Source: an uncultured Cellvibrionaceae bacterium | GTDB taxonomy: Bacteria; Pseudomonadota; Gammaproteobacteria; Pseudomonadales; Cellvibrionaceae | DNA: 64,000 nt | Reading direction: 5' to 3' | Assembly: GCA_964542655.1 (NCBI GenBank) | Contig: CAZIWB010000010.1 | Span: 137,533 to 201,532, forward strand | Part shown: positions 18,413 to 33,722 of the stretch, in pieces | How the letters are laid out: every line of letters begins with the position of its first letter | How positions within the stretch are numbered: the first letter of the stretch is position 1 | The notes under the pieces: generated by a model | The model's input: the letters and a program-made list of their open reading frames with translations, nothing else | Told to the model about the DNA's origin: nothing | The model's database searches: none | Program-made: the position numbers and the translations under genes

Positions 18413-18420
18413 AATAAATC

Positions 18421-18826: not shown

Positions 18827-18898
18827 ACAATAATAGACGTTTTCTTGTCAAGCACTTCTTCAAGTTGCTTTTTATATTTTGCAGGTACGTTCTTCGTA

Positions 18899-20787: not shown

Positions 20788-20952
20788 ATCAAATTCCTTT
20801 AATCTGTCTATGACTATCTTATCTCACATAATAGAATTGGCGTCAATTATTATTTTAGACAAAATGAAATAGGTCACTACAGAAATAGTAATTCCTATAG
20901 CCATACCCCATTTCATCCCGCGATGAAACCCATCTAAATATCTTTCTTTCAT

Positions 20953-21147: not shown

Positions 21148-21377
21148 ACCCGGAAATATTCAAAATCGGATTCAGTTGCTGGCTTCAGGTTATCACTAGG
21201 CATGATGATCACATATCCATTTTCCCAATCATATCCACCGTGTTGCGGCTTACCAGCCAGAACGCCAAAATACTCTGGCTGTTCATCAATCACATAACCA
21301 AGCGTGTGACCATCCATGACATAATATTTCGTCATATCAATTTCCCTTAAGTTTGTTTTTCCAAAAGTCGCGTTCAC
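21123..21377 (-). CDS. Hypothetical protein
   Basis: 84 aa ORF. Confidence 0.35.
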   Translation of the reverse strand: MNATFGKTNLREIDMTKYYVMDGHTLGYVIDEQPEYFGVLAGKPQHGGYDWENGYVIIMPSDNLKPATESDFEYFRVCPKGHIA

Positions 21378-21537
21378 CGCGTAACATCTGGCCTACATCA
21401 GAAGATGCCGAAAATTGTTTGATTGTGGAATTAAGGTTGGCAATTTCTTCATGTGCAAACTGCATACCATTCTTTTTGAATGATTCGCGACCTTCCTTAA
21501 TTCCCATCAAATATGCATCTGTGTACTGGTTAGTCAT
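21337..21537 (-). CDS. Hypothetical protein
   Basis: 66 aa ORF. Confidence 0.3.
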   Translation of the reverse strand: MTNQYTDAYLMGIKEGRESFKKNGMQFAHEEIANLNSTIKQFSASSDVGQMLRGERDFWKNKLKGN

Positions 21538-21764
21538 TATATACTAATCCGAATAGGAGATGCGAAGATATTTTTATGCCCAATAGCTTTTAGCTTCTTC
21601 ACTAGGCGCAATGCGCTCTTACGTGTACGAAGCCTTTGCGTGTAGTTGATTGGCTTACTGTGCTCGTTTCCGTTGAAATAACGAATCTCATATCTAACTA
21701 CCGTTTTCATAATCAATTCCCTTCCGTCTTGATGGTTGACGTATAATTGATTCGTGAATTTAAG

Positions 21765-21995
21765 TCAAATTAATTCTACTCGCCAATACCCGCGCCGCTT
21801 ACTAGCTTTGAATGCGCTTTCATCTTTATTCTTAATGGCATCATTAACGCGACGAATATCTGCAATATCACGACCAAAGCTAACATCTTGCCATTTGCTC
21901 TGCGCGAAACATTTATTAACAATAACATGAAAAATTGCCTGTTCAGCAGTTTCATATACTTGATGGCGGCTAAGAGGCTTTACATTGATGTGCAT
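21765..21995 (-). CDS. Hypothetical protein driven by repeated promoter/leader cassette 1
   Basis: The ATG is immediately preceded by the conserved 30-nt leader ...GAAGGGAATTAAAC. Confidence 0.5.
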   Translation of the reverse strand: MHINVKPLSRHQVYETAEQAIFHVIVNKCFAQSKWQDVSFGRDIADIRRVNDAIKNKDESAFKASKRRGYWRVELI

Positions 21996-22054
21996 GTTTA
22001 ATTCCCTTCGTGTCTTGTTGATCTACGTATAAGAGATTTAAATTATCATGTCAA
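21996..22054 (-). promoter_or_regulatory. Repeated sigma70-like promoter (TTGACA-17-TATACG) plus a conserved 30-nt leader/RBS, copy 1
   Basis: Minus-strand reading: TTGACATGATAATTTAAATCTCTTATACGTAGATCAACAAGACACGAAGGGAATTAAAC-ATG. Confidence 0.6.
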
Positions 22055-22078
22055 GAATTAATTTTGCCTTTAATTCCC

Positions 22079-22351
22079 TTAGCGGTAGTAAGCCGCACCA
22101 TAGGCCGAAACCTGCGAAGCGCCATTAGCGATGTTGCCACGAACGCCCTTAGCAGGGGTTGCCCAACTAGCAGACTTCAGGATGTTGCCCGTTGCGTTTT
22201 CAACGAAGCAAAAAACCGAGCGATAGTTACCTGCATGGTTTTCTACGATGCGGGTATACTTGCGGCCCTTCATGACCGAGATAACAAGGTTACGGCCAGC
22301 TTGATCAACCTTGGCCTGTACTTCGTTTACAAAGTTCTGAATGTCGGTCAT
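22079..22351 (-). CDS. Hypothetical protein
   Basis: 90 aa ORF preceded by a diverged copy of the cassette. Confidence 0.45.
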   Translation of the reverse strand: MTDIQNFVNEVQAKVDQAGRNLVISVMKGRKYTRIVENHAGNYRSVFCFVENATGNILKSASWATPAKGVRGNIANGASQVSAYGAAYYR

Positions 22352-22418
22352 GATTTAATTCCTTGTTTGTGTCTCTCTATGATTTGGTTATATGGTAATA
22401 CCAAATCCAAGTCAACAT
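22352..22418 (-). promoter_or_regulatory. Diverged copy of the promoter/leader cassette (TTGACT-17-TATAAC, leader ending AAGGAATTAAATC)
   Basis: Minus strand: TTGACTTGGATTTGGTATTACCATATAACCAAATCATAGAGAGACACAAACAAGGAATTAAATC-ATG. Confidence 0.45.
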
Positions 22419-22446
22419 TTATTTTTCAAAAAAGAAAAAATATCCA

Positions 22447-22638
22447 TTAAAAAGACTGTCCCTTAAGAACGCGCTTTTTGTGTGCCATAATGCGCTTGCC
22501 CAAATCAAGAGCAATGAAAGTGCGCGGCTGGCCCATCTCACGAACTTCTACCAGAAGAGTACCATCAACAGCGCTAGGAAAGAACCCCTTGCAATCGTTA
22601 CCGTAAAAATCAGAAATCAGCTTGCGAAGACCAGTCAT
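22447..22638 (-). CDS. Hypothetical protein, cassette copy 2
   Basis: 63 aa ORF directly after the leader. Confidence 0.45.
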   Translation of the reverse strand: MTGLRKLISDFYGNDCKGFFPSAVDGTLLVEVREMGQPRTFIALDLGKRIMAHKKRVLKGQSF

Positions 22639-22686
22639 ATTTAATTCCCTTCGTGTCTTGTTGATCTACGTATAATAGATTCATTT
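22639..22686 (-). promoter_or_regulatory. Promoter/leader cassette copy 2 (TTGACC-17-TATACG)
   Basis: Leader identical to copy 1 except for the last base. Confidence 0.6.
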
Positions 22687-22801
22687 GATTCGGTCAAGAA
22701 TTATTTTCAAATATTTTTCGCGCCCATGTAAACCATAGCAACACTAGCGACAAGAAAAGCTACACCAACCATATTAATTCCCCTTGAAATATTATGTCAA
22801 A

Positions 22802-23032
22802 TTAACATTCGACATTAATGTCAAGGCGGAAAAAGAAAGTGCCAAGGTTCTTAGAGAAATCATGCTTGGCGCGGTCCATAGAACCAGCGTAATACTTCAG
22901 AAGACGAAGCGTAGCAATTTCACTGCCATAGGCATAAACACAGCCACTAAGATGTTCGATGGTAAGTTCTTCACCGGCTTCCTTGGACCATGCTTGACCG
23001 AGAAGCTTCAGTTGGTTTGCGGTGATTTCCAT
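22802..23032 (-). CDS. Hypothetical protein, cassette copy 3
   Basis: 76 aa ORF directly after the leader. Confidence 0.45.
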   Translation of the reverse strand: MEITANQLKLLGQAWSKEAGEELTIEHLSGCVYAYGSEIATLRLLKYYAGSMDRAKHDFSKNLGTFFFRLDINVEC

Positions 23033-23092
23033 ATTTAATTCCCTTCGTGTCTTGTTGATCTACGTATAAGGGAATTAAATCATCCTGTCAAA
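23033..23092 (-). promoter_or_regulatory. Promoter/leader cassette copy 3 (TTGACA-17-TATACG)
   Basis: The spacer contains GGATGATTTAATTCCC; same leader. Confidence 0.6.
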
Positions 23093-23100
23093 TATTATTT

Positions 23101-23295
23101 TCATTTTTTTCTTAGATATCGTGCCTTGCGAGTGCACCGCCTAAAAGCACTTTCCAAAAGAGAAAGAACAGGGCGATAGTTACCAACCCGCTCTAACCCC
23201 ATCATCTCATACCAATAATGATTAGCCGCAGCCTGCCATTCTTTTGCTGTCCATGATGTCTCTGGACCTTTAGGATATGGGAAGGGATGTGACAT
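23101..23295 (-). CDS. Hypothetical protein (internal Met start)
   Basis: The track ORF 23101..23451 overlaps the cassette-4 gene; Met at 23295 follows that gene's stop. Confidence 0.3.
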   Translation of the reverse strand: MSHPFPYPKGPETSWTAKEWQAAANHYWYEMMGLERVGNYRPVLSLLESAFRRCTRKARYLRKK

Positions 23296-23296
23296 A

Positions 23297-23695
23297 TTAA
23301 TATCCTTCAGGCTGGATTGTGACACCCGGAACAGTCCAACCATTCCAGAAAATGCTAAGCGGCATTTTATTACCAGTATCAGAATAAACACCAAAGCGAA
23401 TCCCAAAGCGATAATCAAACATAGGCTTAATGGTTTCCATAGTGGCACCACCCTTAATTGCTTCCAGAACGGCAGGAACGATATCTTGACAACGCTGGAT
23501 CATCTGTGCCTTTTCAGTGATTACTTTGGTGTTAGAGGCAGACTTGCGGCCATATACAGCCTTACCAGCACAATCGCGACCATAATAAACCACACCACCA
23601 GCTTCATCTTCAAGAGCTACAGTGCACTTCAGGTTCTTCTTACCGCAGCAATCGCAATTGGTGATTTCATCAGTGATACCAAGAATCTTGAACAT
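23297..23695 (-). CDS. Hypothetical Cys-rich protein, cassette copy 4
   Basis: 132 aa; CDCCGKKNLKC...C...DC gives multiple Cys pairs. Confidence 0.5.
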   Translation of the reverse strand: MFKILGITDEITNCDCCGKKNLKCTVALEDEAGGVVYYGRDCAGKAVYGRKSASNTKVITEKAQMIQRCQDIVPAVLEAIKGGATMETIKPMFDYRFGIRFGVYSDTGNKMPLSIFWNGWTVPGVTIQPEGY

Positions 23696-23752
23696 ATTTA
23701 ATTCCCTTCGTGTCTTGTTGATCTACGTATAAGGGATTTAAATGATTCGGTC
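23696..23752 (-). promoter_or_regulatory. Promoter/leader cassette copy 4 (TTGACC-17-TATACG)
   Basis: The spacer has the palindrome GGGATTTAAATCCC. Confidence 0.6.
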
Positions 23753-23938
23753 AAGAATTATTTTTCAAAAATAAAAATTAATTACCGAAATCATATGAGG
23801 GAGTGTTTTCAAAAATAGGCAACGAACCGTTAGATGTTGCTGCCTGAAATTGTCCCCACGAAACAGACGTATTGGTATCTACCCATACGCGCCCGTTTAA
23901 GTGGAGGAAACAAATCCCATGAAAGAAAATCAACATGA

Positions 23939-24121
23939 TCAAGCCGCCTTGACAATGCGATTCAACTCGCGCGGATCGAAGTATGAAGTCTTATCAAACT
24001 TCACGCAAAATTCGGTATCCTTGAGGCGTACAAGATGTCCAATCGCGGCATCTTCAGAAAGGCCACCATCAACCAGAATGGCCATTGCTTTGTGGGGAGC
24101 GAAAAACATTGTGTCGGTCAT
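23939..24121 (-). CDS. Hypothetical protein, cassette copy 5
   Basis: 60 aa ORF directly after the leader. Confidence 0.4.
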   Translation of the reverse strand: MTDTMFFAPHKAMAILVDGGLSEDAAIGHLVRLKDTEFCVKFDKTSYFDPRELNRIVKAA

Positions 24122-24179
24122 ATTTAATTCCCTTCTGTCTTGTTGATCTACGTATAAGGGATTTAAATCATCCTGTCAA
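24122..24179 (-). promoter_or_regulatory. Promoter/leader cassette copy 5 (TTGACA-17-TATACG; leader with a 1-nt deletion)
   Basis: The -35 overlaps the stop codon of the upstream protease gene. Confidence 0.6.
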
Positions 24180-24736
24180 ATATTATTTTTAAATTTATAT
24201 CCATGAATCCACCTTCCAGAATAGGATAGGGAAGCAATAGGCCTGAAATCGCTATCAGTGCTGGATTCAATGATGCTCTTGTTCATGTTATCAAGAATAT
24301 AAAACTTACCATCGATCTTAACAGCCAATACAGCGTGATACTGGTTCATCGATAGAACCTTACCAACCACGATATAAAGATCATTCCTAGAGAAGCCTAG
24401 GCGGGTTAGAATGTGGTATTTCAGGATAGCATAATCTTCACAATCACCTGTAGCAAGTCTTAGGGTTGTGCTAGGTGTTTGCCATGTATCTACAGGTCCA
24501 TCCAGCTTATATGTGACATAGGTATTAACCCAATCATTTACCAGCTTTATCTTTTCCTGTTTGGATAGGTTAGAATGTTTCTTGAAATTAGAAAATTGTT
24601 CAGGGGAATTTTTAGTGCCTTCCCATCTAGCATCGTAGTTTGTCTTTTTGATTTCTATAGGTACAGAATTGTATATAGCCGGGGTGGCATATACTGGTGT
24701 ACTGATAAGGGCTAGTGCTATTAGAAACCTTTTCAT
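24176..24736 (-). CDS. Secreted transglutaminase-like cysteine protease (BTLCP family), paralog 1
   Basis: Signal peptide MKRFLIALALISTPVYA, then the ATGDCEDYAILKY Cys motif, a later His (QYHAVLAV) and Asp (YILD); same family as 29546..30136. Confidence 0.55.
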   Translation of the reverse strand: MKRFLIALALISTPVYATPAIYNSVPIEIKKTNYDARWEGTKNSPEQFSNFKKHSNLSKQEKIKLVNDWVNTYVTYKLDGPVDTWQTPSTTLRLATGDCEDYAILKYHILTRLGFSRNDLYIVVGKVLSMNQYHAVLAVKIDGKFYILDNMNKSIIESSTDSDFRPIASLSYSGRWIHGYKFKNNI

Positions 24737-25004
24737 AATCCTATTTATAAAAAATGGGGTATGAGACATAAGCCCCATACCCCTTAGTTAATTCAATGAA
24801 ATATAAGATAAATGTTATTCAACATTAAACTTAGAGTTAGTGTTGTGTGATAGGACTTTACTACTTTCCTACCTTCAGCGAGGGTTTCCATCGCCAATCG
24901 CATCACAACATACGACGCCCTTATAGGTCTTTACTATTGTCACACACCCAATAGATAGTGTCCATATATCCTTTTAAGCCCCTATATGGAAGGCTAGTAA
25001 ACTT

Positions 25005-25083
25005 GTTGGTTGCGGGAGCGGGATTTGAACCCGCGACCTTCTGCTTATGAGACAGACGAGCTACCGGACTGCTACTACCCCGC
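25005..25083 (-). tRNA. tRNA-Met/Ile2 (CAT)
   Basis: Acceptor TGCGGGG/TCCCGCA, anticodon arm TCTGT-CTCATAA-GCAGA, T-arm GCGGGTTCAAATCCCGC. Confidence 0.7.
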
Positions 25084-25202
25084 AACAAAATGATATTAAA
25101 AGAGAATAGACAATACTTATGGTGATCTAGGAGGATCGATGAAGTATACAAGAAAATGTTGGAATTTTATGTCTATTCTCATTTAATACCACTTTCGTAG
25201 TA

Positions 25203-25454
25203 TTATTCTTTTATTATCCATTCATCTGGAAATACATTAATATGAATGGCATATCTAAGGTAATTGGATACATTAAGCGATGTATCCTTAGCTTCGTATA
25301 TTACGAGTGCCATAGGTTCAAACGTATTTTGATTTACGTATCTCTCCATGATAAGCGGACTACTAATATCACCCTTAATGATATTCTTTATGTTTTCAAT
25401 TTCTTCAACCGAAGAAATTAATCTGTATGTGTTTTCAATTGTAATGTTATTCAT
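25203..25454 (-). CDS. Hypothetical protein
   Basis: 83 aa ORF. Confidence 0.4.
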   Translation of the reverse strand: MNNITIENTYRLISSVEEIENIKNIIKGDISSPLIMERYVNQNTFEPMALVIYEAKDTSLNVSNYLRYAIHINVFPDEWIIKE

Positions 25455-25889
25455 TATGTTATTCCTATTGTATTTATAAGCGTGAGATTACCGCTTTCTA
25501 TAGGTGCCTTTGAACCGTACCGATTGCCTTGCGAGCATCGTTAATCCTTTATCCACTAATCCCTAAGCCTCTTTGGAAGGCTATCATTGGTAACTAGTAT
25601 AACCTAGTGCTGCCGTTTTTGAAGTCTGGCGTTTGACTTGTCATATACTGCTACTCATCCGTCAATCCTACGTCCACTTTTTAGGGCGATTAAGATTCCG
25701 CTAAGAATCACCGTTATCTTTTCGAATAATCCCTTCAGCCTTGCGAGCATCCGAGAACCACGTTACCTTGCGGCCATGGTATTAAGCACCTTTAACAGTA
25801 TACCGGAACAGACTTTGCGTTTTGATGTGTAAATTGTTTTTAGATAACAATCGCGTCTACCGTTCCGCCACTCCCCCATAAATTTTTAA

Positions 25890-26403
25890 TGGTGGGGGAG
25901 GCAGGATTTGAACCTGCAAATCTGTGTAACCTACCTAGAAGTGCTGTTCCTGTTGCTCCCTTCTCTTTCGAAAAAGGAATACCACACTCCTACTGTCTTT
26001 CGTCTTGCGAACTACTAAACCATTCTTCACGACTTAGGGCACTTAGTGCACCCCTTACCATTTGAATTGCTATCTTGCCTTTTTGCGCGAACAATCAGAC
26101 TCAATAACTACCTATTAACTGTCAGCAATCGTAATATTGGCTTGCGATGACGAAAGCGCCAACTCTCTTAGATACTCACCGATCTAGCTCTGTACCCTAT
26201 CCTTTCGGATCATCACTATTACTTACTACCTATCTCCATTCTACAGAAGACCCTTTCGGGTAGTCTTAGGCTTTTATAGACGGATTGTTATGAGCGAACC
26301 CATAACAACAGGGTATTGTAGGAATATCCCTTTTTCAATGTATTACTACATTTTATCCTAGATTTCGGTAGCAAGCTACCTAGTCAGGGGACTATACTCC
26401 CCT
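25890..26403 (-). ncRNA. Candidate structured RNA (~510 nt) with a tRNA-like 3' end; tmRNA-like, intron-containing tRNA or phage stable RNA
   Basis: ORF-free on both strands. The 3' end has a T-arm GCAGGTTCAAATCCTGC followed by CTCCCCC-A-CCA, which can pair with a 5' AGGGGAG at 26397-26403. There are several GAAA-tetraloop hairpins (ACCCGAAAGGGT, ATCCGAAAGGAT). A hairpin CTCCCCCA/TGGGGGAG lies just beyond the 3' end. Confidence 0.3.
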
Positions 26404-26485
26404 ATTTAACTCTTTTGTTGCTGTCATTATATAGTCTTTTATATCCTATGTCAACAACTATTTTTCAATATTCTGCAATTTATTT

Positions 26486-26562
26486 TGGTAGACGTGGGAG
26501 GAATTGAACCCTCAACCTTGCGATTAAGAATCGCCTGCTCTAACCTATTGAGCTACACGTCC
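26486..26562 (-). tRNA. tRNA, probable Lys (CTT)
   Basis: Acceptor GGACGTG/CACGTCT, D-arm GCTCAATAGGTTAGAGC, loop TTCTTAA, T-arm GAGGGTTCAATTCCTCC. Confidence 0.55.
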
Positions 26563-26571
26563 AAATAATTC

Positions 26572-26646
26572 TGGTGAACCATCTTGGATTCGAACCAAGG
26601 ATCGCGGATTAAAAGCCCGCTGCTTTAGGCCTACTAAGCTAATGGT
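26572..26646 (-). tRNA. tRNA-Lys (TTT)
   Basis: Anticodon arm GCGGG-CTTTTAA-TCCGC, T-arm CTTGGTTCGAATCCAAG. Confidence 0.8.
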
Positions 26647-26981
26647 CCAGTTTCAATCTATATAAACGAAGTGAAATCTAATGTCAACCAAAAGTTTCTT
26701 CTTCGTATATTATTTTCAGTCTATTCCGTTACCAAAGTATTTCATATTGGTATAGCTTATGCCAGTATCGATATTTCATAATACATTGCGGGTCACTTCT
26801 CTTGTGTGCTTTCCGCTTCCATTTCCTGTAGCGGTGATACATATAAGCGTTTCTCATCATGAAACCTTTCAACTAACAAATCAATTCCACTGAAACATTC
26901 TTCAAATGGCTTTACTTGTTTTCCTAACTTGCTGTCTGGATATCTTAAAATATTATCCATCAATAATTCCTTTAATAAAAA

Positions 26982-27057
26982 TGGAGCCGGATATCGGATT
27001 CGAACCGATGACCTACCGCTTACAAGGCGGTTGCTCTAGCCACTGAGCTAATCCGGC
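26982..27057 (-). tRNA. tRNA-Thr (TGT)
   Basis: Acceptor GCCGGAT/ATCCGGC, anticodon arm ACCGC-CTTGTAA-GCGGT, T-arm ATCGGTTCGAATCCGAT. Confidence 0.85.
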
Positions 27058-27064
27058 ATTTCTA

Positions 27065-27358
27065 TTAATCTAACACATCGCCATGTTTACTGTCAAGCAA
27101 TGTATCTTCAATCTTCCAACGAATTACATTATATCCGTTTTCAGTAAGGGTATTTATCGTCTCCGAAAGATCGCCTTTGAAATCTTCTAGGGCGGTCCCT
27201 CTAGCAGAACAGAACCACTTACCATGATAATTATCTACCTGATCTTCGTCAAACTTTGAGCAACGATAGGAAGACGGAACAGTTTCAATGAAATGTTGCC
27301 AATCATCACCAGCATCTACCGTGATATGTGCTTCATAATAAAGCCTTGCGTCACTCAT
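27065..27358 (-). CDS. Hypothetical protein
   Basis: 97 aa ORF. Confidence 0.4.
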   Translation of the reverse strand: MSDARLYYEAHITVDAGDDWQHFIETVPSSYRCSKFDEDQVDNYHGKWFCSARGTALEDFKGDLSETINTLTENGYNVIRWKIEDTLLDSKHGDVLD

Positions 27359-27364
27359 AATATA

Positions 27365-27613
27365 TTACTCTTTAACTGGATATACAATTTCAGCTTCGGT
27401 GAAGTCATAGCACCCACAACCATCTTCTTCTGGATCAAATCTATCCAAAGATGAACATGAAAGTATCACTGTGTTTTCTGGCTTGTTATAGATGATAATC
27501 CCATAACCATCATCAAAATCAGTGCCACCACAGAAAGAATCATATGCGACATGAACATATGTATCTTTTGAAAGAGTGCTTAACACATCAATTAAATTAC
27601 CTACTGTCAACAT
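27365..27613 (-). CDS. Hypothetical protein
   Basis: 82 aa ORF. Confidence 0.4.
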   Translation of the reverse strand: MLTVGNLIDVLSTLSKDTYVHVAYDSFCGGTDFDDGYGIIIYNKPENTVILSCSSLDRFDPEEDGCGCYDFTEAEIVYPVKE

Positions 27614-27617
27614 AATT

Positions 27618-28175
27618 TTATCCTATCTTCTTAAGTCCCGGTTCAATGAAAAGCAATTCTGTATTTTTCTTTTCCACAGAATTATCCCATATGATCCATG
27701 AATATGATGTGGTTCCACCACCCTTAACAGGGCTACCGGCTGGATACATAGAAAGTCTTTCAGAAAACACATACACCTTACTAGGTGGATTTTCTGCATA
27801 GAACCTATGATATCTCTTTTGTGATTCTAGAAAGGCTGTTCTAACCAGAATTGCTACCTTATGAGTAGCAAGGGAAAGTGCATGTTCTAGAATATCTTCT
27901 GCAATATTGTAAGGTGGATTTGTGATGATATTATTGAAATTTTCTTTCACATCAAAAAAATCTTTGACTTCACCATATCCACGATCATATAGATCAGAAG
28001 AAAATACTTCACAACCAGTTTGTTTCAAAACCTCTGACATCGATCCATCACCGCAACAAGGCTCTAGGATGGTTCCTGAAAAGGTTTCATACTTAATTAG
28101 GGCTTTGGTGCCCCATGCTGGCGTTGGATAGAAATCCGCCCCCTCATTATTTACTAAACGTCTATTACTTACCAT
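27618..28175 (-). CDS. DNA N6-adenine methyltransferase
   Basis: ADFYPTP, SAM-binding motif I LEPCCGDGS and catalytic motif IV NPPY. Confidence 0.65.
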   Translation of the reverse strand: MVSNRRLVNNEGADFYPTPAWGTKALIKYETFSGTILEPCCGDGSMSEVLKQTGCEVFSSDLYDRGYGEVKDFFDVKENFNNIITNPPYNIAEDILEHALSLATHKVAILVRTAFLESQKRYHRFYAENPPSKVYVFSERLSMYPAGSPVKGGGTTSYSWIIWDNSVEKKNTELLFIEPGLKKIG

Positions 28176-28307
28176 TGTATCCCTTGTAAGTAGGCATTTC
28201 GCGATGACACCGCAACGCTTTCCTTCTATCAGTGCTATAGTAACAGAAGGCGAATGATTTGTTCACAACAGCGCCTACAACTGCCCATTGTCATTCCCAA
28301 TTTAATG

Positions 28308-28383
28308 TGGCGACCGTGAAGGGACTCGAACCCTCCTAAACCTGTTAGACAGACAGGCGTCTTCACCCGATGACTACACGGCC
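28308..28383 (-). tRNA. tRNA, probable Asp (GTC); U37 atypical
   Basis: Acceptor GGCCGTG/CACGGTC, anticodon arm CCTGT-CTGTCTA-ACAGG, T-arm GAGGGTTCGAGTCCCTT. Confidence 0.55.
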
Positions 28384-28418
28384 ATTTAAACTTTAATATC
28401 CTTAACCTTCGTATGGGA

Positions 28419-28488
28419 TTCGAACCCATGTCTTTCCCTGCACGAGAACATCCTATCCGTTAGAAGAACGAAGCAAAGCATATATTGT
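28419..28488 (-). tRNA. tRNA-like element / possible tRNA pseudogene (anticodon arm not resolvable)
   Basis: Perfect T-arm ATGGGTTCGAATCCCAT and 6/7 acceptor pairing, but no clean anticodon stem; no CCA encoded. Confidence 0.3.
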
Positions 28489-28832
28489 ACTGGTTAATTA
28501 CTCCTAACAATAATACACCTTGAGGATATGCTATGGGTTAATTACGTCCACAACAAAAAAATATTAATCATAAAACTTATAATCTTCTATGGGCCAATTA
28601 TAGCCATTCTTTTCTAGATATGCAACAGTTGCTCTTCTCTTCGCCTCTAGGAATTTGATTTCCCGTTCGTAAGATAGCAACTCTGCATACTTCTTAGAAA
28701 GATCATTTTGTGATAATTTCATAATAACATCCTATAAAAACTGGCCCACATTTTATACAGGGTGGGAACTGTACTTTCAGGGCTTCTCACACCCAAGAGT
28801 AAGGTTGGCAAGCAGCAGAGCCTTTTAATAAG

Positions 28833-28903
28833 TGGCGTCGTGGTAGGGCCTTGAACCCTATTATCTAGTACCTAGTTGTAGTAGGACTTGTGTGATCTAC
28901 AAC
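28833..28903 (-). tRNA. Short tRNA-like element (68 nt + CCA), degenerate
   Basis: T-arm TAGGGTTCAAGGCCCTA, acceptor GTTGTAG/CCACGAC, CCA encoded; D region about 11 nt; best anticodon loop is CTACAAC. Confidence 0.3.
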
Positions 28904-29061
28904 ATTCACACGCGAATAGCTCCCGAATAATAGCTCCCGAATAATAGCTCCACGACATAAATTCAGCGGTCTTACTGGTTCGTCACCATGCCGTGTTAAG
29001 TTTAGTAATACAGAAACATTGAATGTATGTCAACATTTATTTGCACTTTAATAGTATAAAA

Positions 29062-29147
29062 TGGTCCTAGGTGTAGGAATCGAACCTACCCGGCCTTTTA
29101 CAGCGATCCGTTATGAGCGGACGGACTCCCCAATCGTCTTACCTAGG
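29062..29147 (-). tRNA. Type II (long variable arm) tRNA with CAT anticodon, atypical
   Basis: Acceptor CCTAGGT/ACCTAGG, D stem GAC/GTC with an 9-nt loop, anticodon arm GTCCG-CTCATAA-CGGAT, 16-nt variable arm CGCTGTAAAAGGCCGG, T-arm GTAGGTTCGATTCCTAC. Confidence 0.5.
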
Positions 29148-29227
29148 ATAAAGTTGCGGGATGTGTTTCGGCTTCCTTTGCAATGAATTAATAAGGAACA
29201 CCCTTAGCAACTATATTTCAATATTTC

Positions 29228-29314
29228 TGGTAGGGATGGCGGGACTCGAACCCGCACGTCACAAAGGACAGGGGATTTTAAGTCCCCGGCGTCTGCCATT
29301 CCGCCACATCCCCA
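29228..29314 (-). tRNA. tRNA-Leu (TAA), type II
   Basis: D-arm GGCGGAATGGCAGACGCC, anticodon arm GGGGA-CTTAAAA-TCCCC, variable arm TGTCCTTTGTGACGTG, T-arm GCGGGTTCGAGTCCCGC. Confidence 0.85.
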
Positions 29315-29315
29315 C

Positions 29316-29564
29316 TTATTCACTCTCACAATCTAAACAAATCCATTCATCTGTTTCTATAGACATTTCGGAAATTTCGTACCACCAACCACAACAAGTA
29401 CACTGGAACGCAAGCGAATCTATTTCTGAACAGAAACTAATATCATTTTCTGCGTGTCCCATATCATGGTCTTCAAGCACTTCATAAAGTGACTTACAGG
29501 AACCCATCAATTCATATGCAATAAATTCAGCGGTTTGATTATATGTCATTTCTTCCAAATCCAA
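29316..29564 (-). CDS. Hypothetical Cys-rich protein
   Basis: 82 aa with FQCTCCGWWYE and ICLDCESE. Confidence 0.4.
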   Translation of the reverse strand: MDLEEMTYNQTAEFIAYELMGSCKSLYEVLEDHDMGHAENDISFCSEIDSLAFQCTCCGWWYEISEMSIETDEWICLDCESE

Positions 29565-30136
29565 GCAGAGGTTGTGTTTAAAGCAACCATGGGAGTGAAG
29601 TTGTAAATAGTAGGATGTGTTACTTCTAATGAGTCATCCTTATTTTCTAGCTTCACAAACTCACTACCAGTATCGGCTATTAGTACTGCATGGCCACCAT
29701 CAATATTCTTGCCAATAGTGACGTAGAGAGATTCAGCGGGAAATCCAGAGGAAACTAACATTTGGTACTTTACTACCACATATTCCTCACAGTCTCCATT
29801 ACCACGCACAAGCGCAGTATCCGCCGTATCCCACTTATCACCTTTAATGTCGGTACGAAACCTAATGTTTTTATTAACCCATGCGTTGATAAGTAGAAGC
29901 TTATCACGGCTATCCATCGATTTTGCCGATGATATTACATCATCCCATTTACCGCGTTCGGTAATCGGCTTTGATATAACCTCATACCATTTTTTACCCC
30001 AATAAAGAGACGGGTCTTTGAATGTTTCTATAGCTTTCTTACCATATATGTTAGGTGTTCTGGATTCCTGTGCAAAGGCATTACCTGCCAGCACCATCGA
30101 AATTGCCCCAATTGCTACTGTAATTTTTTTAAACAT
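29546..30136 (-). CDS. Secreted transglutaminase-like cysteine protease (BTLCP family), paralog 2
   Basis: Signal peptide MFKKITVAIGAISMVLAGNAFA; GNGDCEEYVVVKY; GGHAVLIADTG; paralog of 24176..24736. Confidence 0.55.
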   Translation of the reverse strand: MFKKITVAIGAISMVLAGNAFAQESRTPNIYGKKAIETFKDPSLYWGKKWYEVISKPITERGKWDDVISSAKSMDSRDKLLLINAWVNKNIRFRTDIKGDKWDTADTALVRGNGDCEEYVVVKYQMLVSSGFPAESLYVTIGKNIDGGHAVLIADTGSEFVKLENKDDSLEVTHPTIYNFTPMVALNTTSAWIWKK

Positions 30137-30463
30137 TGCGCGTCTCCTTTCTTGATATATAGATATCATCATTAAAAAGAGAAGTCAACATTTATTTTAT
30201 GAAAAAGTTGCGGGATGTGTTTCTATTTTCCAAAATGAGCGAATAAGGAACACCCTTAGCAACTATATCAAAATTCCCAATCTTTTCGATAACCATATGA
30301 AGTCTTCTTTGACTTACCAGTATCGTCAAGTTTCAAATCCTTAGTTTTATATGAAAATGTGTCATCAGAAACGCGCTGGCCATCAATATAGTAACGATGG
30401 CGATAAAGATTTCCCCATAGGGAACTTGTCATTGTCAGTTTCATAGTATACTCCTAAAAAGGA

Positions 30464-30540
30464 TGGTGCCGTTGGCAGGGATCGAACCCGCATCTCCGAG
30501 GCTTCAACTCGGCGCTAAGACCACATCAGCTACAACGGCA
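30464..30540 (-). tRNA. tRNA-Phe (GAA)
   Basis: Anticodon arm CCGAG-TTGAAGC-CTCGG, T-arm GCGGGTTCGATCCCTGC, acceptor GCCGTTG/CAACGGC. Confidence 0.75.
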
Positions 30541-30564
30541 TTTAAATTTTGGTACGGATAATGA

Positions 30565-30642
30565 TGGTAGCCACGGCGAGATTCGAACTCGCACTGTCTA
30601 GTACCTAAAACTAGTGTCTCCTGCCAATTGGACTACGTGGCC
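30565..30642 (-). tRNA. tRNA with anticodon TAG (Leu-type anticodon) on a short-variable-arm (type I) body
   Basis: Anticodon arm CTAGT-TTTAGGT-ACTAG, variable arm ACAGT only, T-arm GCGAGTTCGAATCTCGC. Confidence 0.5.
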
Positions 30643-30646
30643 ATTA

Positions 30647-31171
30647 TTACTTATTTAGTCTTGTCATCCCGCGCCAAAATCCATCTGGCGCTGGTTCATC
30701 TTTAGGTATTTTCTTGTTAACTATACCGTTAGTATAACATACTAAGTTTGATATAGCAACACTAATGTTTTTCTTATGGTCTTCTTTTTTGGGCTTACCA
30801 ATGTTTCCTTTACCACCCTTGGCGGCAACATTAGAAGCCCTAGAATTCATCTTTCTAGCACCTTCTAAACCATACTTGTTAACCATTTTATCCCATATGG
30901 ATATCTGGCTACCAACACTTGCAGCATCGGCATAATTTTCTTTAGGCGTCCCCCAATATAAATGTTTTGTGTTTGAACACAACTCATTATGACATGCATG
31001 ACAAACATGTATTTTCTTGCCGGATGGTATTGTTGTTTTTAAATGATGTGCCAAAAGACCTTTTAGGTACATGGATTGGCCACCTATATTAATACAATCT
31101 TCAGATAAATCCAAATGAGACTGTCTGTTTTCTTTATCTAATTTTATATAATCTTCTATATCTATGAACAT
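30647..31171 (-). CDS. HNH endonuclease
   Basis: IHVCHACHNELCSNTKHLYWGTPKEN is a classic HNH motif. Confidence 0.55.
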   Translation of the reverse strand: MFIDIEDYIKLDKENRQSHLDLSEDCINIGGQSMYLKGLLAHHLKTTIPSGKKIHVCHACHNELCSNTKHLYWGTPKENYADAASVGSQISIWDKMVNKYGLEGARKMNSRASNVAAKGGKGNIGKPKKEDHKKNISVAISNLVCYTNGIVNKKIPKDEPAPDGFWRGMTRLNK

Positions 31172-31650
31172 AGAAGTATTTAGTAAACTCGTATTTTAGA
31201 AAACCAGCGTGTCTGCCATTCCACCACACCCGCACTATACTTGTATTTAGTCATTGATGCATCAGGATTCTAACCTGCTTTTGGAAGCCCATTTGTTTTA
31301 TGTTGGATTCGAACCAACCACCTAGACCGTATACAGTCTTGCCACATGCACATCAACATTTCTTATCTGTGGAGAGTATTTTAAAGCATATAATAAGGAA
31401 CTCTCTTAACAGATTTAATCAAATTGTGTTTCGTCAATCCATGCTATTGCTAAAGAGATTTCTTCAAAATTCTCCGCAATCGGATCATATTCACCATGTT
31501 CAAACACATCGTAACGATCATCACTTTGAAGGATGATAACATATCCGCGATGATATTTTTGTTTGGTCCGTGCCATGATTAAATCTCCTGTCTCGTTGAA
31601 TTAACTTGTACAGAAGTAATAAAATCATGTCAACTACTATTTTAATTCTC

Positions 31651-31718
31651 GCGACGGCGGGGATCGAACCCGCGATTGCGGCACCACAAGCCGCCGTGTT
31701 ACCTCTACACTACGCCGT
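31651..31718 (-). tRNA. tRNA, probable His (GTG); acceptor top imperfect, CCA not encoded
   Basis: D stem GTGT/ACAC, anticodon arm GCGGC-TTGTGGT-GCCGC, T-arm GCGGGTTCGATCCCCGC. Confidence 0.55.
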
Positions 31719-31726
31719 CATAATAA

Positions 31727-31802
31727 CTGGTGCTTCATGTAGGTACCGCCCCTACCGCCTTTCGCTTATCAGGCGAATGCTCTACTTCTGAGCTAATGAA
31801 GC
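31727..31802 (-). tRNA. tRNA-Ile (GAT) with an aberrant T-loop (GGCGGTA in place of TTCRANY)
   Basis: Perfect acceptor GCTTCAT/ATGAAGC, D-arm GCTCAGAAGTAGAGC, anticodon arm TTCGC-CTGATAA-GCGAA, CCA encoded; the T-stem is GTAGG/CCTAC but the loop is GGCGGTA. Confidence 0.55.
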
Positions 31803-31805
31803 ATT

Positions 31806-32300
31806 TTAATGGTTTAGCCAGCGGGATTTGAACCCGCGCCTTCCTCTCAACGAGGCTGTCCTATCTAATATATTATCCTTAACGTCATTCTGTGTGGCCA
31901 CACAGAATTAATCTTAGTAATATATTCCACCTTAATCGGGGCGCGAATCCTTCATGAAGATGACAGGAGACATCCGTTAGACGATGGCTAAAGATTGGCC
32001 GATAGAGAAGGATTTGAACCCCCGAATATCATAGTGCCCCTTTGTAATCCGTTTGCGCAATTAAATTACATACTCACACTACTATCCACCACAGCCCTTC
32101 GGTACTTCTTCGGATTTCCCTACTTTTCTGCATTACGTGGAATCTATCGTAACTTTATATCTTAATAATATTGGCTTTATGTATTTCTGGTGCCAGAGAA
32201 AGGGATTGAACCTTAGATTTTATATCTGCCTTTGATCTAGAATAGAACAAGATACTTTATCTGCCGGGGTGGTTAGTAGTGCCCGTTTATTACAGTCTGA
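31806..32300 (-). other. ORF-poor region with at least three further tRNA-like T-arm/acceptor signatures that do not fold into complete tRNAs
   Basis: GCGGGTTCAAATCCCGC with CCA at 31810-31842; GGGGGTTCAAATCCTTC with CCA at 31976-32000; TAAGGTTCAATCCCTTT with CCA at 32190-32215. The 5' halves are missing or diverged. Confidence 0.3.
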
Positions 32301-32315
32301 CATAATAAGAAGTTA

Positions 32316-32394
32316 TGGCCTCGCAGGAGGGATTCGAACCCCCATCGATCCAATTACGGTGCTACGGTTTAGAAGACCGTTCCGATACTGCGAG
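32316..32394 (-). tRNA. Atypical tRNA-like gene: canonical TCT (Arg) anticodon arm, but the D-arm position is nearly empty and a D-loop-like 20-nt segment sits between the anticodon and T arms
   Basis: RNA: CTCGCAG-TA-TCGGA-ACGGT-CTTCTAA-ACCGT-AGCACCGTAATTGGATCGAT-GGGGGTTCGAATCCCTC-CTGCGAG-G-CCA. Confidence 0.4.
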
Positions 32395-32531
32395 AACATA
32401 ACCACTCATAAAAATTGTGCGACCCTTGGGCTTCTTACCCCATCATACACTAGGCGGCTCGCAGCGACTCCTAGGCTTAGTTTCTCCTATGACACTGTGC
32501 TATGCAACGAGGGTTTCCATCGCTACACATA

Positions 32532-32608
32532 GGATTTAAATTGGCTGGCCAAGTAGGATTCGAACCTACCATAAGAAGATTAACAGTCTTCCGCGTCCAC
32601 CTAGTTCG
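32532..32608 (-). tRNA. tRNA-Asn (GTT), second copy
   Basis: Perfect acceptor TGGCCAA/TTGGCCA, anticodon arm GAAGA-CTGTTAA-TCTTC, T-arm GTAGGTTCGAATCCTAC. Confidence 0.7.
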
Positions 32609-32625
32609 CCTTTGGCCAATATAAC

Positions 32626-32770
32626 TCAAAAAGGTGTGGAATGGATTTGAACCATTCTATTCCGCTACGACAGGGGGGAGGTAGTACAAAGCGGTCAACA
32701 CAACCGGCCAGTAGCGCCTAGCCCTTGCATCACACAGTTCCGTACTCTACAACATCGCCTAACCCCTGTC
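32626..32770 (-). other. Unresolved 145-nt tRNA-like/structured RNA segment between tRNA-Asn and tRNA-Tyr
   Basis: T-arm-like GAATGGTTCAAATCCATTC at its 3' end, but no matching 5' acceptor was found. Confidence 0.25.
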
Positions 32771-32771
32771 A

Positions 32772-32858
32772 AGCACTAAATTGGTGGGCCTAGATGGATT
32801 CGAACCAACTCACCGGTTAAGGAACAGATTTACAGTCTGCCGCGTCTCTCCTACTTCG
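32772..32858 (-). tRNA. tRNA-Tyr (GTA), type II
   Basis: Acceptor GGGCTTA/TAGGCCC, anticodon arm GCAGA-CTGTAAA-TCTGT, 14-nt variable arm, T-arm GTTGGTTCGAATCCATC. Confidence 0.8.
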
Positions 32859-33026
32859 CCGTAAGCCCTCTATCTTTCATAACTTTAACTCGGTTCTTAT
32901 ACACGAAGATTATCTTATGTGCAAGATAAAATCTGCGCATTCCTACCTTAAAATCAGAAAGATTTATGTCATCAAAATTCTTTAATCTGCCACTAGAATT
33001 CAAGTTATGACTTCTAAGAACGATCT

Positions 33027-33326
33027 TCATAACTCACCACATATCCTTAGACATTCCGTATAATAATTAGCATAACTTTCTGGAATGTATTCTTTAACAT
33101 CCAGAGGCTTGTTGATTATTCTTCGGAATGTTGACCCGTCTTTCCATGTTTCCTCTGGACCATAATCATATGACCATCTCCAAGGCCCTATCCACATATT
33201 TAAGTCTACATTGAAAACCAATGCTTTGTAAAGCAATTTATCCTCAACTGGATTAAAATATCTTGTGTAATAGTACCCTGTTTTATGTGGCACATTTTCT
33301 GGATACGGTATCATCATAATCTCCAA
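33027..33326 (-). CDS. Hypothetical protein
   Basis: 99 aa Trp/Tyr-rich ORF embedded in the tRNA cluster. Confidence 0.4.
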   Translation of the reverse strand: MEIMMIPYPENVPHKTGYYYTRYFNPVEDKLLYKALVFNVDLNMWIGPWRWSYDYGPEETWKDGSTFRRIINKPLDVKEYIPESYANYYTECLRICGEL

Positions 33327-33328
33327 AA

Positions 33329-33404
33329 ATGGTCAGGGTGGCCGGGATCGAACCGACTGTCTCTTGGTCCCAAACCAAGCGGATCACCAATTTTCCTTCA
33401 CCCT
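33329..33404 (-). tRNA. tRNA-Pro (TGG)
   Basis: Perfect acceptor CAGGGTG/CACCCTG, anticodon arm CTTGG-TTTGGGA-CCAAG, T-arm GTCGGTTCGATCCCGGC. Confidence 0.85.
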
Positions 33405-33414
33405 GATAATCAAA

Positions 33415-33506
33415 ATGGCACCCCGGATAGGATTCGAACCTACATTATCCTTGCGGACATTTCCAGTTACCTTACTCAACGTTCGTAGCGCTGGTGGATA
33501 CCGGGG
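33415..33506 (-). tRNA. Atypical long tRNA-like gene: ACG (Arg) anticodon arm, minimal D region and a 34-nt segment before the T-arm
   Basis: RNA: GCCCCGG-TA-TCCAC-CAGCG-CTACGAA-CGTTG-AGTAAGGTAACTGGAAATGTCCGCAAGGATAATG-TAGGTTCGAATCCTA-TCCGGGGT-G-CCA. Confidence 0.35.
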
Positions 33507-33534
33507 CATTATATGTGTATTTATACAATTAAAT

Positions 33535-33619
33535 CTGGTCCCCCGAACGGGAATCGAACCCGCTTGCTTATTAAAAGCCCGACTTGAAAGGACGGTCACC
33601 TGCCATTAGTGGTCCGGGG
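33535..33619 (-). tRNA. Type II tRNA with TTC (Glu-type) anticodon, atypical
   Basis: Acceptor CCCCCGG/TCGGGGG, D stem CAC/GTG, anticodon arm CCGTC-CTTTCAA-GTCGG, 15-nt variable hairpin GCTTTTAATAAGCAA, T-arm GCGGGTTCGATTCCCGT. Confidence 0.45.
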
Positions 33620-33631
33620 GATATGTGAAAT

Positions 33632-33722
33632 TGGCGGAAGCGGTGGGATTCGAACCCACGGACAGGTTTCCCCGTCGCTGGTTTTCAAGACCAGTTCCTT
33701 AAACCACTCGGACACGCTTCCA
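33632..33722 (-). tRNA. tRNA-Ser (TGA), type II
   Basis: Perfect acceptor GGAAGCG/CGCTTCC, anticodon arm CTGGT-CTTGAAA-ACCAG, long variable arm, T-arm GTGGGTTCGAATCCCAC. Confidence 0.85.

Follow-up and report, generated by a model that had tools for sequence, protein, structure and literature searches.

The window analysed here, a stretch of 64,000 nucleotides (nt) from contig CAZIWB010000010.1 of an assembly assigned to an uncultured Cellvibrionaceae bacterium (GCA_964542655.1, positions 137,533 to 201,532), comes from a distant T4-like myovirus, with PHROG matches to tail sheath, portal, major head protein, scaffold, large terminase, a gp46-like nuclease and a helicase. Every transfer RNA (tRNA) gene of the window lies on the minus strand, in a 26-kb array (7699..33721) in which 20 tRNAs called by default ARAGORN (7699-33721) and a series of atypical elements are interspersed with small open reading frames (ORFs), an HNH endonuclease gene, two BTLCP-like protease genes and a GOLLD RNA. 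The region studied, 31651-33722, is the promoter-proximal 2 kb of this array and contains two arginine tRNA genes, at 33416..33507 and 32316..32394, whose D arm appears to be strand-swapped; we call them rewired below. The major capsid protein of the phage is closest to that of Stenotrophomonas phage DLP6 (67% identity) and is 62-65% identical to those of Synechococcus phage S-SKS1, Sinorhizobium phage phiM12 and Pelagibacter and Methylophilales phages, so the affiliation to cyanomyoviruses assumed in a preliminary description of this DNA is not borne out. Among 50,697 phage records there was no close DNA relative of the window, and near and distant BLAST searches with the region returned ordinary tRNA matches only. 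Look-ups of exact proteins recovered the same phage in two Logan assemblies, together with one mosaic relative, referred to as L084.

Both Arg genes have a perfect 7-bp acceptor stem, a T arm, an encoded CCA and a clean anticodon arm. Only 7 nt separate the acceptor and anticodon stems, no local D hairpin (positions 10-25) is present, and a D-loop-like segment sits 3' of the anticodon arm. This is how the preliminary description had folded them by hand, and the acceptor stems (7/7), the T arms and the 7-nt gap were all confirmed. Read from its 5' end, the 92-nt tRNA-Arg(ACG) gene (33416..33507, minus strand) consists of the acceptor strand GCCCCGG, U8 A9 U10, a helix 5' strand CCA followed by C, the anticodon arm CAGCG/CUACGAA/CGUUG, AGUA, the helix 3' strand AGG, the D-loop UAACUGGA, an extra hairpin GUCC-GCAA-GGAU, the T arm, G73 and CCA. 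In the 79-nt tRNA-Arg(UCU) gene (32316..32394, minus strand), the helix CGG/CCG flanks the anticodon arm ACGGU/CUUCUAA/ACCGU and is followed by the D-loop UAAUUGGA, the linker UCGAU, the T arm, G73 and CCA. The two genes share their spacing and a 39-nt motif, UAUC-N3-[5-bp stem, CU-NNN-AA loop]-AG-N-A-NN-GUAA-N-UGGA, which matches twice in the window with up to 3 mismatches, against 0.02 matches expected. A larger enclosing helix from the first fold (UAUCC/GGAUA plus AUCG/CGAU) was dropped after homologues had been aligned: the helix that covaries is C11-N12-N13 with N-N-G, and the GGAU of the ACG subfamily belongs to the GNRA-capped extra hairpin.

Standard tools handle these genes poorly. 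Default ARAGORN misses both; the Rfam tRNA model finds the UCU gene (32319-32394, 38.8 bits against a gathering threshold of 29) and gives no match at E<=10 to the ACG gene. The possibility raised in the preliminary description, that software would refold the atypical members as standard tRNAs, did not materialise. Relaxed ARAGORN (-ps80, -i, -mt) returned mostly false positives and misfolded the Arg elements, reading one as Gly-ACC and the other with a 4-nt anticodon. Fold z-scores based on minimum free energy were uninformative for most single elements (-0.2 to -1.5).

To define the family we used an exact pattern of 19 specified bases, TATC-N8-CT-NNN-AA-N5-AG-N-A-NN-GTAA-N-TGGA, in which the anticodon is free. 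The pattern was found in 105 IMG/VR stretches; 105 of the 107 matches in the viral loci retrieved have a T arm and a complementary strand that closes the acceptor stem, and they represent 57 unique sequences. In 596 Gb of bacterial and archaeal genomes, the same pattern gave four matches, approximately the chance expectation for 19 specified bases. Two of these are real members, both on contigs of metagenome-assembled genomes (MAGs), and the other two lack the stems and are chance matches. A relaxed search detected the anticodons ACG (71), TCT (29), TCG (2) and CCT (2), all of them for Arg, and one of the two MAG members likewise carries CCT. C35 is invariant in the family even though the pattern does not impose it, and CCA is encoded in many members. 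The segment from the D-loop to the T arm measures 4-5 nt or 7-9 nt, or holds an 18-20-nt insert that forms a hairpin, usually GNRA-capped and itself covarying; the ACG gene of the window is of this last type.

Covariation was assessed in an alignment of 61 sequences, including four from cultured phages. The full structure is paired in 96.8% of the cells of this alignment, with a covariation score of 0.746 compared with 0.197 in shuffles and at most 0.124 for slid partners, and compensatory changes occur in every helix. The two nt after UAUC covary with the two nt before GUAA, and seven fully complementary combinations are seen (AC/GU, GC/GC, GG/CC, AG/CU, AU/AU, UC/GA and GU/GC). At 12-41 the pair is GC in 27 sequences, CG in 23, AU in 9 and UA in 2, with pairing in every sequence, and at 13-40 a Watson-Crick or G.U pair forms in 37 of the 61. 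RNAalifold recovered the acceptor, anticodon and T arms from the alignment, and no canonical D hairpin. A covariance model built from the family alignment, R1, scores the UCU and ACG genes of the window at 88.3 and 75.4 bits and members from cultured phages at 59-84 bits, compared with at most 32 bits for canonical tRNAs.

The segment that follows the helix, AAYUGGAU, is the D-loop of the canonical phage tRNA-Arg genes in the same loci (gcuc-AACUGGAUA-gagc), whose AAYUGGAUA is identical to that of the rewired family, and an invariant U, with an A ahead of it, directly precedes the T stem. On these two grounds we read the gene order as acceptor, U8 A9 U, a strand corresponding to positions 22-25, position 26 and the anticodon arm in the 5' half, and a 4-nt bulge, a strand corresponding to positions 10-13, the D-loop (14-20), a linker ending in U48 and the T arm in the 3' half. 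In the proposed structure, the 3-nt strand after U8 A9 U10 would run straight into the anticodon stem, and its complement would come only after the anticodon arm and the 4-nt bulge; an ordinary Arg D-loop (A14 A15 Y U G18 G19 A20 U) would follow, with a short linker ending in A-U leading from it to the T arm. All helices would be kept, as would the residues for tertiary contacts and for arginyl-tRNA synthetase (ArgRS): U8, A14, A15/U48, G18G19, A20 and C35. Only the order of the chain through the D stem would be swapped, giving a three-way junction in place of the four-way junction of the cloverleaf. At the level of sequence, the alignments and searches establish the family, its secondary structure and its restriction to Arg anticodons and to viruses. 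We have high confidence, as far as distribution and secondary structure are concerned, that the rewired Arg genes represent a conserved, essentially virus-restricted and unannotated tRNA-Arg family with a strand-swapped D arm.

The family has escaped annotation well beyond this phage. Default ARAGORN calls overlap none of the 107 family members, and the Rfam tRNA model detects 10 of 14 tested members, at 29.1-39.1 bits, missing the four of at least 81 nt. In the 20 records of cultured phages in which BLAST found a member, no feature is annotated under the match. These carriers include PAK_P2 and other Pseudomonas phages, phiPsa397, Atu_ph04, Limnohabitans phage DC31, the Stenotrophomonas phages SOVA965 and DLP6, Xanthomonas phage X1, Salmonella phage SSBI34, the Listeria-labelled phage LPML1, Microbacterium phage Zooman and Mesorhizobium phage Cp1R7A-A1; they are phages of Proteobacteria and Actinobacteria, plus the one Listeria-labelled phage, whose record annotates the adjacent tRNAs but skips the rewired Arg gene. 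In the open-access papers searched, we found this architecture nowhere described, although an earlier account may exist elsewhere.

Canonical tRNA-Arg, as encoded by T4 or called by ARAGORN in the IMG/VR loci, resembles the rewired form in its 7-bp acceptor stem, its 5-bp T arm with a UUCGA loop, U8 and A9, its 5-bp anticodon stem with a CU-NCN-AA loop, C35, and its D-loop AAYUGGAU with A20. The difference is that the D-stem strands of the rewired form flank the whole anticodon arm, with the D-loop lying 3' of the stem and leading into the T arm. Mitochondrial tRNAs that lack the D arm or are armless, such as metazoan tRNA-Ser(AGY), have lost the D-loop and the contacts between D- and T-loops. 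Like these, rewired tRNA-Arg has no D hairpin at 10-25 and has a three-way junction; unlike them, it keeps the D-loop, G18G19 and a normal T-loop, and it is encoded by phages in a bacterial setting. The permuted tRNA genes of Cyanidioschyzon merolae and the split tRNAs of Nanoarchaeum are processed to canonical tRNAs, and their genes end inside the tRNA. They share with the rewired Arg genes a non-canonical order of segments, whereas the rewired genes start and end at the acceptor stem and no simple processing would restore the order. Permuted or intron-containing genes had been suggested in the preliminary description; the order of the D-arm segments is indeed rearranged, but the genes are neither circularly permuted nor intron-containing.

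Several lines of evidence bear on whether the rewired genes decode arginine codons. In bacteria, Arg identity depends mainly on C35 and on A20 of the D-loop, and the full set comprises A20, C35, U/G36 and A/G/U73 (PMC9976931). Members of the family carry UGGA (G18 G19 A20, partly fixed by the search pattern), invariant C35 and G or U at position 36. Sixteen amino acids are served by the canonical tRNA genes of the window; the atypical genes contribute precisely three more, Arg (twice), Glu and Cys, and only Gln has no supplier in the window. A possible tRNA-Gln(UUG)-like element at 9431-9502 (minus strand) has good anticodon and T arms, a poor D arm, a U1.C72 mismatch and no CCA; were it functional, all 20 amino acids would be served. 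In the 29 long ORFs of the window, AGA (182), CGT (93) and CGC (42) are prominent among 402 Arg codons, GAA accounts for 624 of 752 Glu codons, and CTA and CTT occur 198 and 220 times among Leu codons; the atypical anticodons match the codons that the phage prefers. In L084, the flanks of the ACG slot, the UUC element described below and tRNA-Pro are 96-99.7% identical to the window, and the slot itself is occupied by a canonical tRNA-Arg(ACG) along with an ORF and further tRNA-like elements, which suggests that the canonical and rewired ACG forms are interchangeable. We infer that the rewired RNAs would fold into the L-shape, be charged by the host ArgRS and decode AGA and CGU/C/A, and we have moderate confidence in their role as arginine decoders.

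The rewired Arg genes, and possibly other odd tRNAs of the array, could instead be decoys or inhibitors that mimic tRNA-Arg and titrate or block a host nuclease directed at tRNAs, a toxin or an ArgRS-dependent sensor. The virus-restricted distribution of the family would suit such a role, as would the presence in DLP6 of a canonical Arg-ACG gene beside the rewired one, and phage tRNAs are known to counter tRNA-cleaving defences, either by changes in the anticodon loop that let them escape (PMC10264068) or, as with T5 tRNA-Lys, by neutralising PARIS (PMC11464382). Like those tRNAs, the variants of the window differ from host tRNAs and could defeat tRNA-directed enzymes; the known cases, however, are loop changes in a normal cloverleaf, whereas in rewired tRNA-Arg the body is changed and the anticodon loop is canonical. 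A decoy is also hard to reconcile with the window having no canonical tRNA-Arg when AGA and CGT are the main Arg codons of the phage. What the family conserves (anticodon loop, C35, A20-type D-loop, acceptor stem, T arm and often CCA) goes beyond what a nuclease decoy should need, and the four different Arg anticodons are what decoders would show. In 109 viral loci, selected for the motif, ARAGORN called only 2 canonical ACG genes against 71 rewired ones. We therefore consider decoys unlikely, and the complementation of isotypes together with the match to codon usage favours working decoders. The rewiring may serve to evade an enzyme, of the host or of a rival, that recognises the canonical D arm or elbow, or it may be a frozen accident spread by gene exchange.

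The array contains further tRNA genes with unusual bodies, which would likewise be decoders with non-standard structures: a short tRNA-Leu, a tRNA-Ile with a different elbow, and Glu and CAU tRNAs with an extra arm. All of these, like the two Arg genes, have a 7/7 acceptor stem and an encoded CCA (32316-32394, 33416-33507, 33536-33620, 29062-29147, 30565-30642 and 31728-31802). Their anticodon loops (CUUCUAA, CUACGAA, CUUUCAA, CUCAUAA, UUUAGGU and CUGAUAA) have a 5-bp stem, U33 and a purine at position 37. A 5-bp T stem with a UUCRANY loop is present in both Arg elements and in the UUC, CAU and Leu elements, and a local D hairpin is found in these elements apart from the two Arg genes. The features that had been picked out by eye in these genes (type I body with TAG, GGCGGTA T-loop, long variable arms with UUC and CAU) were all recovered.

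The 78-nt tRNA-Leu(UAG) (30565..30642, minus strand; ARAGORN, Rfam and fold) is class-I-shaped, with a 5-nt variable loop, A73, G37 and the D arm UAGUCCAAUUGGCAGGAG. In 109 loci we found 43 unique phage tRNA-Leu sequences of at most 79 nt, covering all five Leu anticodons, with A73 in all 36 that end in CCA and a D arm like that of the window (UAGYCCAAYUGGYAGAGG). The GenBank record of DLP6 lists 74-nt genes for Leu-CAA, Leu-GAG and Leu-CAG. Judged by these shared features, the Leu(UAG) gene belongs to a common phage class-I Leu family. Reviews describe the long arm on tRNA-Leu everywhere except in animal mitochondria, and E. coli LeuRS reads A73 and the tertiary core, requiring neither the anticodon nor the variable arm (PMC9976931), which makes a class-I Leu plausible.

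The tRNA-Ile(GAU) (31728..31802, minus strand; Rfam 54.9 bits at 31731-31802, a gene that Rfam adds to the ARAGORN calls; fold z-score -3.6) has the T-loop GGCGGUA in place of UUCRANY and a D-loop, AGAAGUA, without G18G19. The pattern AAGU-N31-35-GGGGCGGUACC-N11-CCA was found in 43 IMG/VR stretches, of which 17 unique sequences close as tRNAs with AAGU in a D-loop that lacks GG; their anticodons are those of at least 10 amino acids and include Ile(GAU), as in the window. The GGCGGUA T-loop and the GG-less D-loop thus form an alternative pair that recurs.

Long variable arms are combined with class-I anticodons in two genes. The UUC (Glu) element (33536..33620, minus strand) is found only by relaxed ARAGORN, by neither default ARAGORN nor Rfam, and the CAU element (29062..29147, minus strand) is called by ARAGORN and matched in Rfam only as tRNA-Sec, at 20.7 bits; neither matches RF00005 at E<=10. 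Their variable regions measure 15-16 nt. The D arm of the UUC element is normal (CACU/GGUG, with U13.G22) and its variable arm measures 15 nt (GCUU-UUAAU-AAGC); the element further has C1-G72, A73, CCA and one U.U mismatch in the anticodon stem, and the CAU element shares C1-G72, A73 and CCA. In L084, 83 of the 85 nt of the UUC element are identical and both changes preserve pairing (C2-G71 to U.G, G7.U66 to G-C), compared with 2 changes in the 11-nt spacer beside it. Its pattern had no match in IMG/VR or JGI metagenomes, leaving L084 as the only source of a relative; a D-arm/anticodon pattern tried for the same element gave one match, inside a coding region, which was discarded as chance. Class II tRNAs combine an arm of more than 10 nt with a Leu, Ser, Tyr or Sec anticodon, a combination seen neither in the UUC and CAU elements, with their class-I anticodons, nor in Leu(UAG), with its 5-nt loop. 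Elsewhere in phages, 8 of 99 CAU tRNAs are at least 82 nt long, and in the 109 loci tRNAs for Lys, Met, Thr, Ile, His, Cys, Val and Asn can bear a variable arm of 10-20 nt. Long-variable-arm bodies with class-I anticodons are therefore frequent in phage arrays. A further atypical gene, a 72-nt tRNA-Cys(GCA)-like element (16516..16587, minus strand; relaxed ARAGORN, fold z-score -2.65), has a 7/7 acceptor stem, a T arm, U73, CCA and a shortened anticodon stem, and is missed by default tools.

The UUC and CAU elements might be mischarged by LeuRS, SerRS or TyrRS and so place a wrong amino acid at GAA or AUG. Both have A73 and C1-G72, E. coli LeuRS reads A73 and the tertiary core without the anticodon (PMC9976931), and nematode nev-tRNAs (PMC3333845) and bacterial allo-tRNAs (PMC5389517) are precedents in which a long variable arm goes with a class-I anticodon. 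Allo-tRNAs, however, have 8/4 or 9/3 acceptor/T stems, whereas all the elements of the window are 7/5, and codon usage argues against mischarging: GAA is the commonest Glu codon and the window has no other tRNA-Glu, so mistranslation would be proteome-wide. The UUC element also keeps a Glu-like D stem, with C12-G23 and U13.G22, which we take to be a Glu signature. Mischarging is in our estimate improbable. Extra arms occur on Lys, Thr, Val, His, Cys and Ile tRNAs as well, and as an optional insert in Arg(ACG) with the core unchanged, which points to the arm as a tolerated decoration rather than an identity switch.

The array also holds four long tRNA-like RNAs. A scan of the window for the succession T arm, 7 nt, discriminator base and CCA recovered the modules that had been described as orphan T-arm/acceptor halves. 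The modules are real but not orphans: in four elements the 5' acceptor strand lies much further upstream, as a 7/7 Watson-Crick match at 31991, 32149 and 28956 and a 6/7 match at 32302. We estimate the probability of a given 7-mer within 300 nt at ~0.02 each, so the three perfect matches are not chance. The 182-nt RNA (31810..31991, minus strand; fold z-score -3.3) has the acceptor UUAGCCA/UGGCUAA, the T arm GCGGG-UUCAAAU-CCCGC, a variable-arm-like hairpin, A73, CCA and a branched arm of ~110 nt in place of the anticodon arm; ARAGORN -i models it as a tRNA with a 91-nt intron. The 154-nt RNA (31996..32149, minus strand) has a perfect acceptor CGAUAGA/UCUAUCG, a T arm, G73, CCA and a long hairpin whose terminal loop holds the 8-nt palindrome UUGCGCAA, which could support loop-loop dimerisation. 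The 115-nt RNA (32188..32302, minus strand) has a 6-bp acceptor GUCAGA/UCUGGC, a long structured insert, a weak T arm (AAGG-UUCAAUC-CCUU), A73 and CCA. It has a homologue in L084 (712-826, 73% identity) in which acceptor pairs 3 and 6 and one T-stem pair are changed on both sides and still paired, and its pattern had no match in IMG/VR or JGI metagenomes. The 124-nt RNA (28833..28956, minus strand) has the acceptor GUCGUGG/CCACGAC, the T arm UAGGG-UUCAAGG-CCCUA, G73 and CCA, and ~2.6 tandem copies of the 14-nt unit GGAGCUAUUAUUCG directly follow its 5' acceptor strand. An nhmmer search with all the long elements against ~1 Mb of phage tRNA loci, DLP6, L084 and each other recovered only the L084 homologue. 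No transfer-messenger RNA (tmRNA) was recognised: the best match to the tmRNA model, at 31810-31899, reaches 17.8 bits against a gathering threshold of 47, and ARAGORN finds none.

The closest precedent for the long elements, by analogy, is T4 species 1 RNA. Species 1 and 2 are stable RNAs encoded by rnaC (139 nt) and rnaD (119 nt) beside tRNA-Arg in the T4 cluster, and thus are likewise long stable-RNA genes inside a T4-type tRNA cluster; the rnaC product combines a closing stem with long hairpins and a perfect T arm (CCGGG-UUCGAAU-CCCGG). The elements of the window differ in having an encoded CCA and perfect 7-bp acceptor stems (6 bp in the 115-nt element), and an nhmmer search with rnaC and rnaD against the window gave nothing at E<=10. 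The 115-182-nt elements may be tRNA-like RNAs that are stable, undergo tRNA-type processing and carry an acceptor/T minihelix with CCA. A further element at 32626..32775 (minus strand; sequence and T-arm scan) consists of a promoter-like TTGACA-N17-TAGAGT and an RNA of ~110 nt that ends in a T-arm-like hairpin followed by CACACCUUUUU (a U run), with no CCA and no acceptor partner; its counterpart in L084 has 72% conservation overall, with no change in the -35 box or the hairpin and divergence in the middle. A module of T arm, acceptor 3' strand and ACCA also lies at 25890-25917, inside the GOLLD RNA of the array (25479-25992, minus strand; RF02032, 155.6 bits, gathering score 150).

Decaying pseudogenes, another explanation offered in the preliminary description, or the debris of recombination in a rapidly evolving array account at most for a small part of this set. 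The element at 28402..28474 (minus strand; fold, and Rfam at looser settings, which add 28405-28474 at 30.4 bits) does look degenerate: its 'anticodon' loop has 5 nt, its first acceptor pair is G.G and CCA is absent. It is a probable pseudogene, the only likely one. The tRNA-His at 31648-31720 (minus strand; Rfam 49.8 bits) has its first two acceptor pairs mismatched and AGAA where CCA is expected, unlike nearly all other array members; the DLP6 record lists 'pseudo' tRNA genes, the array is mosaic with insertions of the homing-endonuclease type, and three long elements have no detectable relatives. Nevertheless, the Arg family comprises 57 unique IMG/VR sequences and members in cultured phages, and all its helices show compensatory changes; the Leu and alternative-elbow classes span several lineages; and three long elements close with perfect 7/7 acceptor stems, which chance is unlikely to produce. 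Decay can thus be rejected for Arg, Leu and Ile, whose families or relatives are conserved in sequence and vary in ways that preserve or restore pairing; it is also unlikely for the UUC element, in view of its 2 pair-preserving changes in 85 nt against 2 in 11 nt of adjoining spacer; as a general explanation it is very improbable.

Some tRNA genes in other phage arrays are interrupted. In L084, a 712-bp insert (2239-2950, corresponding to 32829-32832 of the window, in tRNA-Tyr) lies right after the anticodon and carries a 202-aa ORF with weak NUMOD3 and endonuclease-like matches, and Rfam identified no group I intron in it. In the IMG/VR phage contig L183, tRNA-Lys(UUU) (3376-3501) and tRNA-Asn(GUU) (3654-3776) each have an insert of ~49 nt between anticodon nt 35 and 36, far too short for a group I intron. 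These interruptions, and the ARAGORN -i reading of the 182-nt element as a tRNA with an intron, could be taken to mean that the atypical genes are cut and ligated into ordinary cloverleaf tRNAs, but this is scarcely credible: the canonical Arg order would need transposition of a segment (two cuts and two ligations) rather than removal of an insert, the 5' and 3' ends of the rewired genes are ordinary acceptor ends unlike those of circularly permuted genes, lengths of 78-79 nt leave nothing removable, and Rfam gave no match to a group I intron or another ribozyme in the region, and none to an intron family in the window or L084; the inserts in question measure 40-110 nt.

The atypical genes are probably working tRNAs, and we consider it likely that the array is a nearly complete tRNA set tuned to the codon usage of the phage, whose atypical members are mostly working genes of recurring, phage-typical structural classes. 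Certain observations count on the other side. Pair 13-40 is an N.A mismatch in 24 of the 61 sequences, most of them ACG genes of the CCN/AGG group. RNAalifold leaves the 3-bp helix out of its prediction for the 61-sequence alignment, so that the case for it is made by the covariation counts, and the invariance of C11-G42 and much of the D-loop is partly by construction, these being fixed by the search pattern. DLP6 and some other phages carry canonical and rewired ACG genes together, and there the rewired gene could be non-decoding. Some of the identity features of host tRNAs are missing from the UUC and CAU tRNAs: where E. coli tRNA-Glu has G1-C72 and G73, the UUC element has C1-G72 and A73. 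Relatives were detected for only one of the four long elements, the 182-, 154- and 124-nt RNAs having none. Lastly, the window covers 64 kb of a 201.5-kb contig, and further tRNAs may lie elsewhere on it.

The number of non-canonical members, which the preliminary description had called unusual, is indeed high but is shared with the array of DLP6 (L242, KU682439 102164-120240), the closest cultured relative. That array is similar and has about nine further unannotated T-arm/acceptor modules, some of them tRNA-sized (71-89 nt) with CCA, one of 138 nt without CCA and several without an acceptor partner; the record itself lists a 92-nt tRNA-Ile(UAU), a CTA suppressor and two 'pseudo' tRNAs. Relatives identified through the tail sheath (80 IMG/VR loci at <=58% identity) had no tRNA nearby in any of the 37 scanned. 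Among the remaining features of the window, a hairpin-forming element of ~70 nt (uaguugcuaagggugu...acacaucccgcaacu) is present in two copies, 81% identical, between array genes (30198-30268 and 29144-29216, minus strand), and a search for homologues of a 96-aa ORF of the array returned only itself. Two tandem ADP-ribosyltransferase genes (34144-35900, plus strand; PF03496), T4 Alt-like by context, are divergent from the array and had no relatives in IMG/VR.

On balance, we lean towards the view that phages carry a topological isomer of tRNA-Arg that is L-shaped, charged via the relocated A20 loop and active on the ribosome, widespread in virulent phages of many bacterial phyla, near-absent from cells and missed by routine annotation; together with the class-I Leu tRNAs, the GGCGGUA elbow and the extra arms, it would suggest selection to differ structurally from host tRNAs. 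The connectivity of the tRNA cloverleaf is among the most conserved features in biology. If this view is correct, a rewired tRNA that keeps its helices and tertiary residues shows that the L-shape tolerates a changed path of the strand, and it offers a test case for whether ArgRS, RNase P, EF-Tu, modification enzymes and the ribosome read shape or topology. Unannotated members are present in records of Pakpunavirus, Vequintavirinae and Ounavirinae. Since ARAGORN misses the rewired genes and GenBank leaves them unannotated, phage tRNA repertoires, and the analyses of codon compensation and anti-defence built on them, undercount Arg tRNAs wherever the rewired form is present. If the rewiring protects from a tRNA-directed defence or toxin, it would represent a new axis of the arms race between phages and their hosts, and a source of orthogonal tRNA scaffolds for engineering.

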